IMG/VR virus record: IMGVR_UViG_2541047735_000003
Span: 1 to 40,965 of that record
Length of the DNA: 40,965 bases
Strand: one strand, 5' to 3'
Source: a virus
Lineage: Duplodnaviria; Heunggongvirae; Uroviricota; Caudoviricetes
A program made the position numbers and the translations under genes. The notes beneath the pieces are model-generated. The model was given only the letters and a program-made list of their open reading frames with translations. It did not search any database and was not told where the DNA came from. This document shows positions 5,198 through 34,347 of this stretch, in pieces (the first letter of the stretch is position 1; each line of letters starts with the position of its first letter).

Positions 5198-5212
5198 TTA
5201 CCGTTGAGGTAA
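5198..5212. promoter_or_regulatory. Operator palindrome TTACCGTTGAGGTAA (leftward promoter region)
   Basis: TTACC-N5-GGTAA between the leftward -35-like element and the start of the first leftward gene. Confidence 0.6.
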
Positions 5213-5259: not shown

Positions 5260-5274
5260 TTACCCATTAGGTAA
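5260..5274. promoter_or_regulatory. Operator palindrome TTACCCATTAGGTAA
   Basis: Perfect TTACC-N5-GGTAA about 20 bp upstream of the TTGACA -35-like element of the leftward promoter. Confidence 0.6.
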
Positions 5275-5331: not shown

Positions 5332-5916
5332 TTATTGTTTGTTTTTTTCGTTCTGGTTGATGACAAATTCAATGTAACTTTCGATCTTTGCTTTCTCGGT
5401 TTCGGGTAACAATGCGTAGCGCGAGCGGTCATAGTTGATGGTCGCAGGGTCGTGCGGGTGAATCAGTAATTCATAGCCGTGACGCCCGAATGCGGATGCA
5501 ACATTCTCCAGGGTGGAAATGGAAACGCTGACCTCATTGTTTAACAGGCGGCTGATTGTCACCTGGGCGACGCCGGATGCGCGGTGAAGTTTTCCCTGTG
5601 TTGAAAGGTCGCGGCTTTCGCTCATCCAGCGTTCCAGGTTGTGAGCCGCCAGCTGGCCAATGTCGCTTGGGCCGACAGGCTGAAAACCTTCCTGAGAAAG
5701 CGAGCGATCGATATCAAGCCAGTTACGGGGTTTATTGGCGGCAGCTTCAATTTTTCGCGCAACCTGGTCGCCGATAACCTTCTTGCCAAGAGCCCAGCGG
5801 TTTACCAGATTTGCCTGAGTTCCAAGTTTTTCTGCCATCCGCGTCTGAACACCATTGAATTCACGGTCGATCAAGTCGTTGAGATTTTGCCTGCGGACGT
5901 CCTGGATACTTTTCAT
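5332..5916 (-). CDS. CI-like prophage repressor with two HTH domains and no S24 peptidase domain
   Basis: 194-aa protein; N-terminal Cro/CI-type HTH (TRMAEKLGTQANLVNRWALGKK) and a second HTH-like segment (ASGVAQVTISRLLNNE); divergent from the cro-like gene across an operator-rich intergenic region; no Ala-Gly/Ser-Lys autocleavage module seen. Confidence 0.65.
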   Translation of the reverse strand: MKSIQDVRRQNLNDLIDREFNGVQTRMAEKLGTQANLVNRWALGKKVIGDQVARKIEAAANKPRNWLDIDRSLSQEGFQPVGPSDIGQLAAHNLERWMSESRDLSTQGKLHRASGVAQVTISRLLNNEVSVSISTLENVASAFGRHGYELLIHPHDPATINYDRSRYALLPETEKAKIESYIEFVINQNEKNKQ

Positions 5917-5971: not shown

Positions 5972-6034
5972 TTACCCAACAGGTAAATGCACCCCATAGG
6001 TAACTATCCTTGATTTTTGTTACCTTATGGGTGA
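5972..6034. promoter_or_regulatory. Tripartite operator between repressor and cro-like genes
   Basis: Three sites in 63 bp: TTACCCAACAGGTAA (5972-5986), GCACCCCATAGGTAA (5989-6003), TTACCTTATGGGTGA (6020-6034). Confidence 0.65.
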
Positions 6035-8278: not shown

Positions 8279-8293
8279 TTACCTATAAGGTAA
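8279..8293. promoter_or_regulatory. Operator palindrome TTACCTATAAGGTAA
   Basis: Perfect site in the intergenic region after the P-like gene. Confidence 0.55.
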
Positions 8294-8340: not shown

Positions 8341-8355
8341 TTACCTTAGAGGTAA
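8341..8355. promoter_or_regulatory. Operator palindrome TTACCTTAGAGGTAA overlapping RBS
   Basis: Perfect site ending 3 nt before ATG 8359; its right half doubles as the Shine-Dalgarno region. Confidence 0.55.
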
Positions 8356-10523: not shown

Positions 10524-10538
10524 TTACCACAACGGTAA
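10524..10538. promoter_or_regulatory. Operator palindrome TTACCACAACGGTAA upstream of terminase small subunit
   Basis: Perfect site 17 nt upstream of ATG 10556. Confidence 0.55.
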
Positions 10539-10555
10539 CTATTACCACGGTGGTT

Positions 10556-11152
10556 ATGATGCCTGCTGAACCTAAAACCTATAAACGCAAATCAACGCAA
10601 TTTAAGCCACTAACAGCAATGCAGGAGGCTTATTGCCAGTCATACATCAAAACGCCTGAAAACCAGACTCAGGCAGCGATTAACGCAGGATTCTCCCCAA
10701 ATACAGCGGCAGTTAAAGCCAGTGTCATGATGCGCGATGAACGCATTCAAAAACGGATTGCCGAGTTGATGGAGGAGCGCAACAAACGAATGCGCGTCAG
10801 TGCTGATTACGTTCTCATGCGCCTGGTGGAGATCGACCAGATGGACGTGATCGACATCCTCAACGACGATGGGAGCCTTAAGCCAATCCGCGAGTGGCCG
10901 AAAATCTGGCGCACTACGCTTAGTGGCTTTGATCTGTCATCGACCATCATGAACATGAACGAGGATTCGATAGAGACAATCCTCAAAAAAATTAAATGGC
11001 CTGACAAGGTGAAGAACCTCGAACTGATTGGTAAGCACGTCGACGTCAACGCATTCAAAGAACGCCTGGATGTTAATGTGAATGTGACAATTGCTGATCG
11101 CATAGCGGCAGCCAGGAAGAGACTGAAAGAACGTCAGGATGGCAATCAGTGA
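10556..11152 (+). CDS. Terminase small subunit
   Basis: Directly upstream of and overlapping the large terminase; about 199 aa from ATG 10556 (ORF-track frame opens at TTG 10478); small-terminase-like region TPENQTQAAINAGFSPNTAAVKASVMM. Confidence 0.65.
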   Translation: MMPAEPKTYKRKSTQFKPLTAMQEAYCQSYIKTPENQTQAAINAGFSPNTAAVKASVMMRDERIQKRIAELMEERNKRMRVSADYVLMRLVEIDQMDVIDILNDDGSLKPIREWPKIWRTTLSGFDLSSTIMNMNEDSIETILKKIKWPDKVKNLELIGKHVDVNAFKERLDVNVNVTIADRIAAARKRLKERQDGNQ

Positions 11153-13289: not shown

Positions 13290-13366
13290 TGGCGTGGCAT
13301 GCAGGATTCGAACCTGCGACCAACCGCTTAGAAGGCGGTTGCTCTGTCCAACTGAGCTAATGCCAC
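13290..13366 (-). tRNA. tRNA-Arg (anticodon UCU)
   Basis: Minus strand reads GTGGCATTAGCTCAGTTGGACAGAGCAACCGCCTTCTAAGCGGTTGGTCGCAGGTTCGAATCCTGCATGCCACGCCA: 7-bp acceptor stem, D-arm, anticodon loop CTTCTAA (anticodon TCT), T-loop GGTTCGAATCC, encoded CCA. Confidence 0.85.
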
Positions 13367-13688: not shown

Positions 13689-13703
13689 TTACCTGAAAGG
13701 TAA
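13689..13703. promoter_or_regulatory. Operator palindrome TTACCTGAAAGGTAA upstream of portal operon
   Basis: Perfect site about 90 bp upstream of ATG 13794; identical 15-mer to the site at 34333. Confidence 0.55.
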
Positions 13704-30372: not shown

Positions 30373-30579
30373 TCATTTTCGTAAAGCCATACAAATCATG
30401 GCTTGCACCCCACCGGCAGAAGGTATGGTGATTTCCACCATACCCTTCGAGAAGCGTTGAGAAATCTTCTTATGTTGAGATTTCCAGTCTAGACCCATTC
30501 CCTCAACGATAGGTTTCATTGGGGTGTACGGTTCGCCGTTGTGATTGACAACATAAAGTTCTACGCCGTGGAATGGCAC
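30373..30579 (-). pseudogene. Truncated antirepressor N-terminal fragment
   Basis: 68-aa ORF whose sequence (NGEPYTPMKPIVEGMGLDWKSQHKKI) resembles the N-terminal domain of P22-type antirepressors but ends after about 68 residues, far shorter than full-length antirepressors. Confidence 0.4.
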
Positions 30580-30726
30580 GTTGATAGTAGTGACAAGTTT
30601 GAAACATCGCTGGTTGTAAGCCAGCAGATGCTCGTTATTTTACATCGCGGTACAATTTCTCGCTGGTGGCTCTTTTACACACCTTAACCAAATACGGTTG
30701 ATTTTAATGTTTTTTCGCGCTTATCA

Positions 30727-30741
30727 TTACCTTTTCGGTAA
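30727..30741. promoter_or_regulatory. Operator palindrome TTACCTTTTCGGTAA at head of antirepressor leader 1
   Basis: Perfect site followed by TTTACA, a hairpin and an intrinsic terminator. Confidence 0.55.
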
Positions 30742-30831
30742 ATTTACATCGCGCTCATCTTGTGCCATAGTAATCGGGCACTGGCAAAATCCAGTGCCGG
30801 GATTGGCGTCCCGGGTTACTAAGTGGCGCAT

Positions 30832-30854
30832 ACCACGCCAGACGTGGTTTTTTT
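30832..30854 (+). terminator. Intrinsic terminator inside antirepressor leader 1
   Basis: ACCACG-CCAGA-CGTGGT followed by seven T; about 155 bp upstream of the antirepressor start codon. Confidence 0.6.
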
Positions 30855-31010
30855 ATGCGTTAAGCACAGCTATATCCGAATTATGGTGGGCTGGGCAGGG
30901 GTCCGAAAGGACGCCGGTACCACTTAGGCCGGTACGCCAACCTTGTCCAGTTCACCACCAGTAATTGGCGTTGCGGTGGTGATTAAAATCACTAAGTGGA
31001 GATAACCACC

Positions 31011-31721
31011 ATGGCTAATGCTCAAACTGCCATCTTCAAATTTGAATCTGTTAACCCTATCCGTTCCATCATTATCGATGGCCAACCATGGTTTGTAGCC
31101 CAAGACGTTTGTAGTGCGCTGCGTATCCAAAACGTCACCCAAGCACTTGAAAAACTGGATGATGATGAAAGGTCTATGTTCAACATAGGGCATGAACATC
31201 GTGCAATTTTTGACAGCCGAGTAAAAGAGATCAACATCATCTCCGAGTCAGGCCTCTACACACTGATCCTCCGCTGCCGCGACGCAGTGACACCAGGCAC
31301 TATCCCCTACCGCTTTCGTAAATGGGTTACAGGTGAGGTTCTTCCTCAGATCCGCCGCACCGGAAGTTACATTAAAAACTCGCTCCCGCAGGAAGAACGC
31401 ATAAAGATAGTTGCCGACCAGGTAGCCAACGCCACAGCATCAGCAGTGATGCAGGCAATGAAGATAGAGAACAAAACCTACAGTGCCCCGCTGAAGCCCG
31501 GCTACCGCAGCCTGATTCATTCTCCGTCTGGTGTTCTCGGCCTGACGGAGAACTCACTGCTGATGAATCTGCTGAACCAGTTACAGGACGACGGGCACGA
31601 CGTATCGGGCGCGGCGGCGGAGCTGACCACCATGTTCTGCTACATCGTCGGTGTGAGTAAATGCCTGCGTGATATCCAGACCCACGCGGAATACATCAAC
31701 GACAAGGCAGGGTTCTTCTGA
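31011..31721 (+). CDS. Bro-N domain antirepressor-like protein (copy 1)
   Basis: N-terminal Bro-N-like motif (DGQPWFVAQDVCSALRI); C-terminal about 135 aa nearly identical to the convergent paralog 32993..33730; ATG 31011 (ORF-track frame starts 30996). Confidence 0.65.
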   Translation: MANAQTAIFKFESVNPIRSIIIDGQPWFVAQDVCSALRIQNVTQALEKLDDDERSMFNIGHEHRAIFDSRVKEINIISESGLYTLILRCRDAVTPGTIPYRFRKWVTGEVLPQIRRTGSYIKNSLPQEERIKIVADQVANATASAVMQAMKIENKTYSAPLKPGYRSLIHSPSGVLGLTENSLLMNLLNQLQDDGHDVSGAAAELTTMFCYIVGVSKCLRDIQTHAEYINDKAGFF

Positions 31722-31752
31722 CGGGCGGTGGCACAGGGATGTGCCTTTAAAT
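31308..31752 (+). repeat. Inverted repeat: 3' half of antirepressor copy 1
   Basis: About 445 bp nearly identical in inverse orientation to 32962..33406, extending about 30 bp past the stop codon. Confidence 0.65.
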
Positions 31753-31793: not shown

Positions 31794-31808
31794 TTACCTT
31801 AAAGGTAA
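31794..31808. promoter_or_regulatory. Operator palindrome TTACCTTAAAGGTAA upstream of cargo operon
   Basis: Perfect site 43 bp upstream of ATG 31851. Confidence 0.55.
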
Positions 31809-31850: not shown

Positions 31851-32177
31851 ATGACAAAACTTGGATTCGTGATGAGAGGTCCGGTAAGAAGCGGAACTCA
31901 TGCAAAGCGTAGCAAGAGTCGTATTTTTACTGGTAAGGTTGTAGCACGTAAATCAGCTATTGGCTCGTTCAATAGTGAAAATGCGGCATTGCGCCATATT
32001 TTTATCAGCACAAAGCCAAGAGCATCCGCTGATGTGCATACAATGTCTATTCCTATCACAAAGAATATAAAGCGGATAAAAAAGCTCTCATCTGCAGAAT
32101 CAAAAGAGATATCTTTCCGCCAGCTTAACTCATTAGAAACGCATATGAAGGAAGAGGAATTCGATGTTTTTGAGTGA
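31851..32177 (+). CDS. Hypothetical basic protein, first gene of AT-rich cargo operon
   Basis: 108 aa, Lys/Arg-rich; GGAG upstream; overlaps the downstream gene by 14 nt; no recognisable family. Confidence 0.5.
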   Translation: MTKLGFVMRGPVRSGTHAKRSKSRIFTGKVVARKSAIGSFNSENAALRHIFISTKPRASADVHTMSIPITKNIKRIKKLSSAESKEISFRQLNSLETHMKEEEFDVFE

Positions 32178-32676
32178 GTATAGCGGGAAGGTTATACCTA
32201 CTGGTGAGTTTAAAACTGATGACTTTCTGATTTCGCTAAAAGATGCTTTTAAACAACACTGGCGTCATGGTCATCATCCTGATCTGGGAAAAGATACTCT
32301 TTTTGAAAGACCAGAGGAAGTATTAGGCTTCCATCTCAGAAAGGTTCATGTCAATATTGGTGAATATGCATCATATTCATACTCATGTACTGAACAGTGT
32401 TGGGATGAGTGGTCATATGGATTGATTGATGAACAAGGAAATTACAGGCCAAAACCAACCAGTAACGCATATCTCATATATGCAGTCAATGAAATAAGAG
32501 ATGCAGCCTTACTAGCTTATTGGGACCCGCCCGCACACACCAAAGCTAACGCAAAAGTTTGGATGGATTCCGTATTGAATTTCACAAAATTATTTCATGA
32601 ACGAACGAATACAGCTCCACTTAGTAGAAATGTTTATCCGTGGGATTATTCGTACAAATCCAAAAAGCCTGCATAG
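32164..32676 (+). CDS. YafO-like toxin candidate
   Basis: 170 aa; segments FHLRKVHVNIGE and TSNAYLIYAV...AALLAYWDPPAHTKA resemble the YafO pattern as recalled from memory; AT-rich. Confidence 0.4.
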   Translation: MFLSEYSGKVIPTGEFKTDDFLISLKDAFKQHWRHGHHPDLGKDTLFERPEEVLGFHLRKVHVNIGEYASYSYSCTEQCWDEWSYGLIDEQGNYRPKPTSNAYLIYAVNEIRDAALLAYWDPPAHTKANAKVWMDSVLNFTKLFHERTNTAPLSRNVYPWDYSYKSKKPA

Positions 32677-32757
32677 TAGTTTTTTATGGACGAAACAAAA
32701 GTCAGTGCTACACTCATTGACGCCACATTGAGGTGGTTTATAGATGGAAATTTCACA

Positions 32758-32919
32758 ATGAAAAAAGCATTTGCTGCACTGTTCGTTTTGTTGTCTCTGG
32801 TAGCTTCAACTCAGGCCTTTGCCGGTCGTTGTCAGCACGACAGCGACACTGCTGCTGACGGCTCCCGCTGCGGTGGGCGTTCTGCGGATTCCCGCCCGGG
32901 TGGCGGTGGCATTCGTTAA
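32758..32919 (+). CDS. Small secreted peptide
   Basis: Internal ATG of ORF 32686..32919 gives MKKAFAALFVLLSLVASTQAFA signal peptide followed by a short Gly/Arg/Cys-containing mature region. Confidence 0.45.
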   Translation: MKKAFAALFVLLSLVASTQAFAGRCQHDSDTAADGSRCGGRSADSRPGGGGIR

Positions 32920-32961: not shown

Positions 32962-33406
32962 TCGTTTTGCACGTCCCTGTGCCGCCGTTCTGTCAGAAGA
33001 ACCCTGCCTTGTCGTTGATGTATTCCGCGTGGGTCTGGATATCACGCAGGCATTTGCTCACACCGACGATGTAGCAGAACATGGTGGTCAGCTCCGCCGC
33101 CGCGCCCGATACATCGTGCCCGTCTTCCTGTAACTGGTTCAGCAGATTCATCAGCAGTGAGTTCTCCGTCAGGCCGAGAACACCAGACGGAGAATGAATC
33201 AGGCTGCGGTAGCCGGGCTTCAGCGGGGCACTGTAGGTTTTGTTCTCTATCTTCATCGCCTGCATTACTGCTGACGCCGTGGCGTTGGCTACCTGGTCGG
33301 CAACCATCTTTATGCGTTCTTCCTGCGGGAGCGAGTTTTTAATGTAACTTCCGGTGCGGCGGATCTGAGGAAGAACCTCACCTGTAACCCATTCAAGAAA
33401 TCTGAA
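32962..33406 (-). repeat. Inverted repeat: 3' half of antirepressor copy 2
   Basis: Partner of 31308..31752; antisense spurious ORFs 31372..31557 and 33157..33342 are about 90 percent identical, showing the nucleotide identity. Confidence 0.65.
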
Positions 33407-33730
33407 TGCTCTCGTTCCCTCAGTCATTGCCTCTTTGCAACGCAGAATAAGGATGTAGAGACCTGATTCTGAAACGATGGATAGTTCTTGTATTCCACCA
33501 GGGGTCTGTATTGAATACAGCCCCTTTTTGTTCCAGCCTTTTTTATCAAGTTTTCTCGCTTGTGTAACATCAATATTCAAAGCATTGCACACATCTTTGG
33601 TGACAAACCAAGGTTCTCCGTCAATCATGAACATACGGATCTGGCAGGATGACTCAAAGGAAAAGATGGAAGGTTTGGTATTCATGGCGATCACCTTTGT
33701 AGTTAGGTTAATCACCACCGCTGAGACCAA
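32993..33730 (-). CDS. Bro-N domain antirepressor-like protein (copy 2)
   Basis: N-terminal Bro-N-like motif (DGEPWFVTKDVCNALNI) divergent from copy 1; C-terminal half nearly identical to copy 1; true start probably the internal ATG (MNTKPSIF). Confidence 0.65.
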   Translation of the reverse strand: MVSAVVINLTTKVIAMNTKPSIFSFESSCQIRMFMIDGEPWFVTKDVCNALNIDVTQARKLDKKGWNKKGLYSIQTPGGIQELSIVSESGLYILILRCKEAMTEGTRAFRFLEWVTGEVLPQIRRTGSYIKNSLPQEERIKMVADQVANATASAVMQAMKIENKTYSAPLKPGYRSLIHSPSGVLGLTENSLLMNLLNQLQEDGHDVSGAAAELTTMFCYIVGVSKCLRDIQTHAEYINDKAGFF

Positions 33731-33967
33731 TCAGATGGTGGTGAACTGTGCAGAGTTGGTCTTACCGGCTACAAAGGAACCCGGCGCACCTTTCGGTGCC
33801 CCCACACAGCCCACCATAGAATAGGTGCGCTTTACACATAAAAAAACCGCTTATGCGGCATATGTGCCTCTGTAGTAATCCGGGAGACCAATCCCGGCAC
33901 TGGATTTTGCCAGTGCCCGATTACTATGGCACAAGAGGAGTGCGATGTAAATTTACCGAAAAGGTAA
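33731..33967 (-). repeat. Antirepressor leader, inverted-repeat copy A'
   Basis: Reverse complement aligns with 30715..30995, including the operator, the hairpin and a T-run terminator with a shorter CCGC-ATAA-GCGG stem. Confidence 0.6.
33953..33967. promoter_or_regulatory. Operator palindrome TTACCGAAAAGGTAA at head of antirepressor leader 2
   Basis: Perfect site; mirror-image counterpart of the site at 30727. Confidence 0.55.
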
Positions 33968-34332: not shown

Positions 34333-34347
34333 TTACCTGAAAGGTAA
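34333..34347. promoter_or_regulatory. Operator palindrome TTACCTGAAAGGTAA between small antirepressor gene and tailspike
   Basis: Perfect site in the divergent intergenic region. Confidence 0.55.

Follow-up and report, generated by a model that had tools for sequence, protein, structure and literature searches.

Two antirepressor leaders of a phiV10/epsilon15-like podophage carry IsrK-type and C4-type RNAs with different pairing specificities

The DNA considered here is a 40,965-nucleotide (nt) stretch from a virus of the Caudoviricetes (IMG/VR record IMGVR_UViG_2541047735_000003, positions 1 to 40,965), called the window below, and its subject is the pair of related leaders that precede two antirepressor-like genes. 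The window belongs to a phiV10/epsilon15-like podophage of E. coli and is 97–98% identical to phiv142-3, PAS61 and HEMP4 over the first 20 kb. Leader module copy 1 (30727-31010, + strand) precedes ant1 (31011-31721, +), which encodes a 236-amino-acid (aa) protein with a Bro-N domain (Pfam Bro-N, E = 1e-19), and leader module copy 2 (33967-33686, - strand) precedes ant2 (32993-33685, -; 230 aa, Pfam Bro-N, E = 1.8e-13). The two leaders are about 82% identical between 30727-30995 (+) and the mirror interval 33975-33700 (-). The whole window was scanned with the Rfam covariance models at their curated gathering thresholds, and both isrK and C4 scored above the gathering score in both copies, on the same strand as the antirepressor gene. 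Both leaders are a phage immunity module of a known kind, already described for phages P1 and P7 and for the Salmonella prophage Gifsy-1, and it is probable that each of them is an antisense-RNA control module of the P1/P7 immI type for its antirepressor gene. The unusual point of this phage is that it possesses two such modules with different pairing specificities.

Each leader opens with the operator palindrome TTACCTTTTCGGTAA, found by palindrome scan at 30727-30741 in leader 1, where it is a perfect palindrome abutting the -35 element, and at 33953-33967 in leader 2. A promoter-consensus scan placed the promoters, TTTACA-17-CATAGT with a TG extension, at 30743-30771 (+) and 33951-33923 (-). 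Because the promoter of leader 1 aligns with the Gifsy-1 isrK promoter, its transcription start is placed at 30778. Upstream of it, TTGATT-18-TATCAT at 30698-30727 (+) is a weak promoter-like site, a consensus match only (9/12), whose start would fall in the operator; its position resembles that of P2c4/Oc4 in P1. The leader palindrome is no chance match, since TTACC-N5-GGTAA occurs at 13 sites in the window against 0.69 expected, a number reached by 0 of 100 shuffles. The eleven further sites lie at 5198-5212, 5260-5274, 5972-5986, 6020-6034, 8279-8293, 8341-8355, 10524-10538, 10542-10556, 13689-13703, 31794-31808 and 34333-34347. Four of these palindromes flank an open reading frame (ORF) at 5332-5916 (-) that encodes a 194-aa protein with an HTH_3 match in Pfam, the candidate prophage repressor. 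Judged from sequence, the palindromes look like the operator set of a prophage repressor, and both leader promoters would be under the control of this candidate, whose binding and link to the leader operators are predicted in the same way. Other palindromes are paired ahead of early-looking genes, one precedes the ORFs between the two ant genes, and another precedes an 85-aa ORF beside the tail-fibre gene.

The promoter is followed by an IsrK-type short RNA at 30778-30854 (+) in copy 1 (Rfam isrK RF01394, 67.7 bits, cut-off 50, model positions 1-77 of 77; fold z = -2.4) and at 33916-33840 (-) in copy 2 (74.7 bits against the same cut-off, model positions 1-77 of 77; fold z = -2.8). Both copies show the isrK architecture, namely two 5' hairpins and then an intrinsic terminator hairpin with a U-run. 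Hairpin 1 of copy 1 (30778-30797, +; 7-8 bp, loop CAAAAU) pairs GCACUGG with CCAGUGC over 7 pairs, or 8 counting G30777-C30798, and hairpin 2 (30798-30813, +), CGGGA-UUGGCG-UCCCG, presents in its loop a first pairing site, a1 (UUGGCGU, 30803-30809, +), which is followed by a second, b1 (CUAAGUGG, 30819-30826, +). The corresponding sites of copy 2 are a1 UUGGUCU (33891-33885, -) and b1 CUACAGAGG (33875-33867, -). The terminator of copy 1 consists of a 6-bp hairpin at 30832-30848 and seven U at 30848-30854 (+), and that of copy 2 of a hairpin and seven U at 33859-33840 (-); with a stem of 5-6 bp and a U7 tract it is predicted to be weak. An earlier reading of the sequence alone, the original prediction, had listed an operator, a TTTACA element, a hairpin with a 6-nt loop and a T-run terminator, and all of them are present in both leaders. 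It had further placed the terminator about 155 bp ahead of the start codon, in agreement with the 157 nt from T30854 to the ATG at 31011. Across 84 homologues hairpin 1 is 99.8% paired, with compensatory changes in 5 of its 7 pairs. The discrete small RNA that it offered as one outcome was right in kind, for the segment is a full-length Rfam isrK match and the Gifsy-1 homologue ends at its terminator (Hershko-Shalev et al., 2016; PMC4825925), while the length of roughly 90 nt has to be revised to the 77 nt (30778-30854) given by homology with the mapped IsrK 5' end.

The first two hairpins of copy 1 also resemble a further Rfam family, c4-a1b1 (RF03163; 44.1 bits, E = 5.6e-10, cut-off 46.7). 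We did not file the leader under this model, as its score lies under the cut-off and the isrK model passes over the same hairpins. The loop of hairpin 1, G-CAAAAU-C (30785-30790 and 33909-33904), is conserved in the Rfam consensus of both isrK and c4-a1b1 and reads CAAAUU in P1; it was fixed by the pattern used to search for homologues, so that its invariance in the retrieved set carries no weight. A complementary partner for this loop was sought in C4 and the leader and none was found. The loop also resembles a -10-like hexamer. The 5 nt on either side of the terminator, CGCAU (30827-30831) ahead of its hairpin and AUGCG (30855-30859, +) past the U-run, can pair in an outer helix around the whole terminator, a helix formable solely in read-through RNA. 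In the homologue alignment 81.7% of its cells are paired and 4 of 6 pairs vary on both sides; these column counts are better than the result of testing cognate against non-cognate pairing, which is weak (5.5 vs 4.6).

The stretch of about 155 bp between terminator and start codon, for which the original prediction had listed no element, is occupied by a C4-type RNA gene of 84-88 nt together with target sites. C4-type antisense RNA 1 lies at 30879-30962 (+) (Rfam C4 RF01695, 66.0 bits, cut-off 45, model positions 1-87 of 87) and C4-type antisense RNA 2 at 33821-33734 (-) (78.6 bits, same cut-off, model positions 1-87 of 87). The former folds with a minimum free energy of -43.6 kcal/mol (z = -5.0 vs shuffles) and the latter with z = -4.5; the 3' arm of C4 ends in CACCACCA, the same as in P1. 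The loop of the second inner hairpin of C4-1 carries b' (CCACUUAG, 30920-30927, +), and a single-stranded segment carries a' (ACGCCAA, 30934-30940, +); in copy 2 the equivalents are b' CCUUUGUAG (33777-33769, -) and a' AGACCAA (33762-33756, -). The target region on the ant1 mRNA (30965-31001, +) contains a2 (UUGGCGU, 30965-30971), which comes just after C4, then a mimic of the C4 5' arm (GGUGGUGA, 30975-30982), and then b2 (CUAAGUGG, 30992-30999), which overlaps the Shine-Dalgarno (SD) sequence GGAG at 30998-31001. On the ant2 mRNA the target region (33730-33691, -) contains a2 (UUGGUCU, 33730-33724) and b2 (CUACAAAGG, 33702-33694), the latter overlapping the SD sequence AAGGUGA at 33697-33691. 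GGUGGUGA is able to pair with the C4 3' arm, placing a2 in a hairpin loop, and this feature is also visible in P1.

In both copies b' exactly complements its own b1 and b2 over 8-9 nt, and a' complements a1 and a2 over 7 nt. A second target set, a1/b1, thus stands upstream of the C4 gene on the same transcript in both copies, and the next gene downstream of C4 is in both cases a Bro-N antirepressor-like gene, the one that it is predicted to regulate. Cognate duplexes are predicted at -12 to -14 kcal/mol for b and -9 to -10 kcal/mol for a, the values on the target regions being -12.6 and -10.3 kcal/mol for ant1 and -12.0 and -9.2 kcal/mol for ant2. Pairing across copies at the a and b sites reaches -4.5 to -6.7 kcal/mol, and the single stronger cross value of -9.2 (b' of C4-1 on the ant2 leader) is due to pairing with the conserved GGUGGUGA segment, off b2. 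Since the copies differ in both a and b and non-cognate pairing is weak, the modules should not cross-react, and on these predicted energies the two should act independently. As a separate observation, ACTAAGTGGAGC occurs at 32614-32625 (-), inside the 3' part of a YafO-like ORF (32164-32676), and is identical to b2 plus SD of ant1; it is a possible third target of C4-1 or else a recombination scar. The b2 octamer occurs 4 times in the window against 0.8 expected.

The same layout was followed in related leaders. A pattern built from the two hairpins retrieved 119 IMG/VR loci with 98 distinct leaders, 97 of which were fully parsed. All 97 show a hairpin with at least 5 T, a C4-type RNA after a gap of 11-77 nt, a2, and then b2 before the next ORF, and in 11 of the 11 most divergent loci checked both isrK and C4 lie above their Rfam cut-offs. 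The arrangement of the elements is considered non-random because both Rfam families are matched in both copies of the window and the layout recurs in the 97 parsed leaders. MAFFT alignment misplaces the variable terminator hairpin (52.6% paired), and per-sequence folding was used instead. Seven a1/a'/a2 triplets occur among the 97 leaders; in six of them a' pairs 7/7 with both sites, and in the seventh it reaches 7/7 on a1 and 6/7 on a2. The b' loops comprise 50 different sequences, of which 43 have 8 or more consecutive pairs with their cognate b1 and 46 with their cognate b2, compared with a mean run of 4.6 (b1) and 5.9 (b2) in non-cognate combinations; the corresponding duplex energies are -12.1 and -13.4 kcal/mol for cognate and -4.7 and -7.3 kcal/mol for non-cognate pairs. 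Among 50 leaders in which a long ORF follows, b2 has its 3' end 6-11 nt ahead of the ATG in 43 and extends over the ATG in 5. The homology and anatomy of the module, the complementarity of its sites and their covariation across the family are therefore matters of direct observation in this analysis. The same pairing pattern reportedly explains the heteroimmunity of P1 and P7, and the matched a/b codes extend it to dozens of specificities.

The first gene of the module varies among these leaders. In 24 of 74 distinct leaders the ORF after b2 (often MATT...) stops within about 120-190 nt, as in L003, L009, L012, L015, L016, L035, L036, L041 and L044, so that the first gene is a short ORF comparable to P1 icd; about two thirds of the leaders, those of the present window among them, run straight into a long ORF. 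Two unrelated RNAs were encountered in the fetched loci, an RT-15 RNA in L011 (5856-6047, -; 173 bits) and a type II hammerhead ribozyme in L005 (7644-7710, -; 65.6 bits).

The covariation of the pairing sites also bears on the analogy with lambda 6S RNA and tR' that the original prediction had drawn. In such a scheme RNA polymerase would pass the terminator with the help of a phage protein, an antiterminator of the Q or N type, and so switch on the antirepressor, the short RNA being a by-product. Both systems have an intrinsic terminator close to the promoter that gives rise to a short RNA, and the CAAAAT of the hairpin-1 loop with its likeness to a -10-like hexamer might be taken in the same sense, as an observation only. 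In lambda, however, a protein antiterminator serves the late operon, without antisense RNA or repeated target sites, whereas the element described here precedes an antirepressor gene, and the homologous leaders of P1 and Gifsy-1 are read through without a dedicated antiterminator under the control of RNA pairing. Protein antitermination moreover leaves the three-way covariation of the a and b sites unexplained. We regard a lambda-like arrangement as very improbable and rejected it as the parallel, the true homologues being the P1/P7 immI region and Gifsy-1 isrK.

An antisense-RNA module of the immI type, in turn, can be put together as follows. Transcription would begin at about 30778 in copy 1 and 33916 (-) in copy 2, from a sigma-70 promoter beside an operator to which the prophage repressor probably binds. 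The weak terminator should stop most transcripts and give the 77-nt IsrK-type RNA bearing a1 and b1, while read-through transcripts would hold the C4-type RNA, then a2/b2, and then the antirepressor gene. The C4 RNA is presumably excised as in P1 and would display b' on the loop of a hairpin and leave a' single-stranded, so that both may pair with a2/b2. The antirepressor would then not be translated, because C4 pairs with b2, which overlaps the SD sequence. The upstream a1/b1 set would compete for the same surface of C4, so that an excess of the short RNA should relieve repression. We tentatively propose that the IsrK-type RNA, C4 and the ant mRNA may form one family-wide three-RNA circuit, combining masking of the ribosome-binding site (RBS), decoy titration and terminator tuning, in which Gifsy-1 orf45 would be the C4 gene and isrK and P1 c4 the same device; this is a working model to which we would give somewhat less than even chances. 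Processing, the block of translation and decoy action are here expected by analogy with experiments on P1 and Gifsy-1.

Several points weigh against this interpretation. The c4-a1b1 score of copy 1 (44.1 bits) is just below the cut-off of 46.7, and terminator efficiency, C4 processing and repressor binding are all properties that we infer for the present phage by analogy. Without an icd-like small gene, the predicted action of C4 falls directly on ant. Furthermore, the cis a1 mutants G28A and G31A of Gifsy-1 raise expression, which a pure decoy model does not predict, and the authors of that work invoke a structure switch and a translated orf45 instead (PMC4825925).

A further reading, an addition to the antisense-RNA module, would make the leader also an attenuator responsive to C4. 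The final 1-3 nt of b1 together with the GCG(C) behind them are complementary to the upper part of the terminator's 5' arm and the loop, as is UGGCG (30824-30828) to CGCCA (30836-30840) in copy 1. Such a b1-terminator hairpin would weaken the terminator, and C4 bound to nascent a1/b1 would break it and favour termination, so that C4 would limit its own synthesis and the transcription of ant, much like P4 CI RNA via seqA; this stands close to the "checkpoint" of the original prediction. In 59 distinct leaders this hairpin is the fold given for nascent RNA reaching from b1 to the end of the terminator loop (mean z = -1.78, 78% below -1), although the shuffles behind these z-scores are mononucleotide only, and the leader hairpin of P1 has its 5' arm sequestered by a UGCGG:CCGCA pairing. 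For Gifsy-1, anrP'-lacZ is 23- to 55-fold higher in the cis a1 mutants, and a transcriptional fusion rises 8-fold with IsrK in trans (PMC4825925), an effect that could be relief of Rho polarity instead. Cognate and non-cognate b1-terminator pairing do not differ significantly (4.25 vs 4.01), with about five covarying sequence types, and co-expression of STnc1160 did not relieve IsrK toxicity in Gifsy-1 (PMC4825925). Such an attenuator is possible, and on balance we consider it rather unlikely.

Beyond the leaders, the two ant genes are themselves related. A 504-nt inverted repeat (31219-31722 / 32992-33495, 91% complementary) gives them common C-terminal halves (91% identical), while their Bro-N halves and leaders have diverged. 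In both genes GGAGCTGACCACCATG occurs in frame, at 31619-31634 (+) and 33080-33095 (-), and is very similar to the sequence running from the SD to the ATG of ant1, GGAGATAACCACCATG (30998-31013); a short internal start comparable to that of Ant1/Ant2 in P1, or a recombination joint, could account for it. The leader was found in 253 phage records and occurs in two copies in only one. HEMP4 is a relative with copy 1, and phiV10, ZX5 and EC.W1-9 are relatives with copy 2; because relatives carry one or the other, the present phage looks like a recombinant bearing both. Three ORFs (31851-32919, +) with their own operator at 31794 lie between the convergent ant genes, and a strong hairpin terminator (32942-32925, -) lies beyond them. 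The middle one (170 aa) has a weak match to YafO toxin (E = 7e-4, below cut-off), and its TL-2011b homologue is annotated as a YafO family toxin. Ahead of copy 1, a 68-aa ORF (30373-30579, -) matches the first 70 positions only of the P22 antirepressor N-terminal domain (E = 2.5e-20), and adjoining it is a partial duplicate of the leader -35 region, GTTATTTTACATCGCG (30634-30649); together they are probably what is left of a third, older antirepressor module, interrupted when copy 1 was inserted. The window also contains a tRNA-Arg gene with anticodon UCU (13290-13366, -).

The device itself is ordinary, being covered already by two curated RNA families and by experimental work on two phages; what is of interest is the presence of two modules that should not cross-react, and the unified reading of isrK and c4, rather than the leader as such. 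In practical terms, annotation is corrected for a stretch that is left blank or labelled only "terminator" in the public records of related phages, the phiV10 record being one that annotates the leader stretch as "terminator" only. About 50 natural b' and 7 a' specificities with matched targets are candidate orthogonal RNA repressor/target pairs, and the same set is a clean natural test of the pairing model. If the three-RNA circuit is true, two a/b codes that do not cross-react would give two independently triggered antirepressors in one phage.

Among the known systems, phage P22 offers the more distant likeness, with an immI region (mnt, arc, sar, ant) in which an antirepressor gene situated among late or tail genes is likewise checked by a small antisense RNA. 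In P22, however, sar lies on the opposite strand across the ant RBS and the repressors are Mnt and Arc, whereas the RNA described here shares the strand of its target gene and would act in trans. The Rfam scan of the window gave no sar match, and the ORFs neighbouring the ant genes had no Pfam match above curated cut-offs, none being of the Arc/Mnt type. A P22-type immI was rejected for these reasons, as the Rfam matches are on the gene's own strand and neither sar nor Arc/Mnt-type matches accompany them. The CI RNA of phage P4 is a processed leader RNA with the repeated sites seqA and seqC. Like C4, it pairs with repeated sites up- and downstream of itself on the same transcript, and it has been cited as a related system (PMC4825925). 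Its outcome differs, being premature transcription termination and not RBS masking, and the likeness noted here is one of description.

Phages P1 and P7 are much closer, and their immI region reportedly has the order c4 antisense RNA, icd, ant. The C4 RNA of P1 is cut by RNase P from a longer precursor to give a stable RNA of about 77 nt. As annotated in NC_005856, where the a/b sites and C4 carry annotation from experiment, the P1 region reads C1 operator Oc4, P2c4, P1c4, a1, b1, c4, a2, b2, icd, ant, which is the order found here. P1 shares the two hairpins with a1 in a loop, a hairpin followed by AUUUUU between b1 and c4, the outer helix around that hairpin and the 5'-arm mimic after a2, and its Rfam scores are 51.0 for c4-a1b1, 35.1 for isrK (below cut-off) and 68.8 for C4. 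There are also differences. In P1, b2 lies on the RBS of the first gene, icd, whereas the present phage is without icd and b2 lies directly on the antirepressor RBS; the antirepressor is Ant1/Ant2 in P1 and a Bro-N protein of 230-236 aa here; and the AUUUUU tail of the P1 leader hairpin is replaced by a clean U7. Also unlike P1, the host of these modules is a phiV10/epsilon15-like podophage with another repressor and operator and with two modules per genome.

The Gifsy-1 isrK-anrP locus is arranged in a like order, with Rfam scores of 79.3 for isrK, 69.0 for C4 and 48.1 for c4-a1b1. It shares the full-length isrK match, a C4-type RNA after the terminator, a2/b2 at the antirepressor SD sequence, an aligned 5' end and the outer helix; a2 corresponds to transcript nt 192-198 and the b2 core to about nt 222-229, partly overlapping the anrP SD, with the anrP AUG at nt 241. 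The orf45 frame of Gifsy-1 is not kept in the present phage, no Q-like gene is noted upstream, although no search of the window was aimed at one, and the a and b specificities are unlike. Experiments on Gifsy-1 placed the end of IsrK at its terminator, with a fraction of transcripts continuing into anrP. This longer mRNA is silent in translation, anrP translation increases 139-fold when IsrK is provided in trans, and downstream of IsrK there is a stable processed RNA, STnc1160 (PMC4825925). A discrete Hfq-binding IsrK transcript of about 77 nt is known for Gifsy-1 only (PMC4825925). In that work (Hershko-Shalev et al., 2016; PMC4825925) the authors neither identified this downstream RNA as a P1-type C4 nor considered a2/b2. 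When their numbering is mapped on C4, A107, the start of orf45, falls on the conserved AUGG in the 5' arm of C4, C159 and C162 belong to a', and G28 and G31 to a1; accordingly their helix b-I corresponds to the a1:a' pairing, and orf45 spans C4, a2 and b2.

These correspondences bear on the model of the Gifsy-1 authors, in which the read-through RNA has an inactive fold, IsrK in trans opens the orf45 RBS, and translation of orf45 is coupled into the antirepressor. Mutants of the orf45 start and stop codons lower activation, and native gels and 30S footprints point in the same direction (PMC4825925). The AUG of orf45, however, is part of a conserved C4 arm and the frame covers all of C4, a2 and b2. 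The two copies in the window close this frame after 14 and 28 codons, leaving 68 and 36 nt to the start of ant, which makes coupling of orf45 to ant impossible here. Of 94 leaders in the family, 33 have the stop within C4, and the frame finishes close to the following start in only 5 of 68; since the frame is not kept across the 94 leaders, a conserved upstream ORF was rejected as a candidate. The double mutants G28A/C162U and G31A/C159U stay high (224 and 327 vs wild type 4; PMC4825925), which is expected if a' must match a2 too. We consider it improbable that the Gifsy-1 model applies unchanged.

The literature was searched for a link between isrK and P1 c4, and none was found among the papers covered. 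A preprint on APSE phages has isrK and c4 Rfam matches beside a Bro-N gene, and a 2025 review gives IsrK and c4 as separate systems. Set beside the antisense-RNA modules described here, the comparison of sequence elements suggests a single system behind the IsrK locus of Gifsy-1 and the c4 locus of P1. Treating them as one would recast "orf45" as an RNA gene and make the role of a1/b1, whether decoy, attenuator or both, testable.

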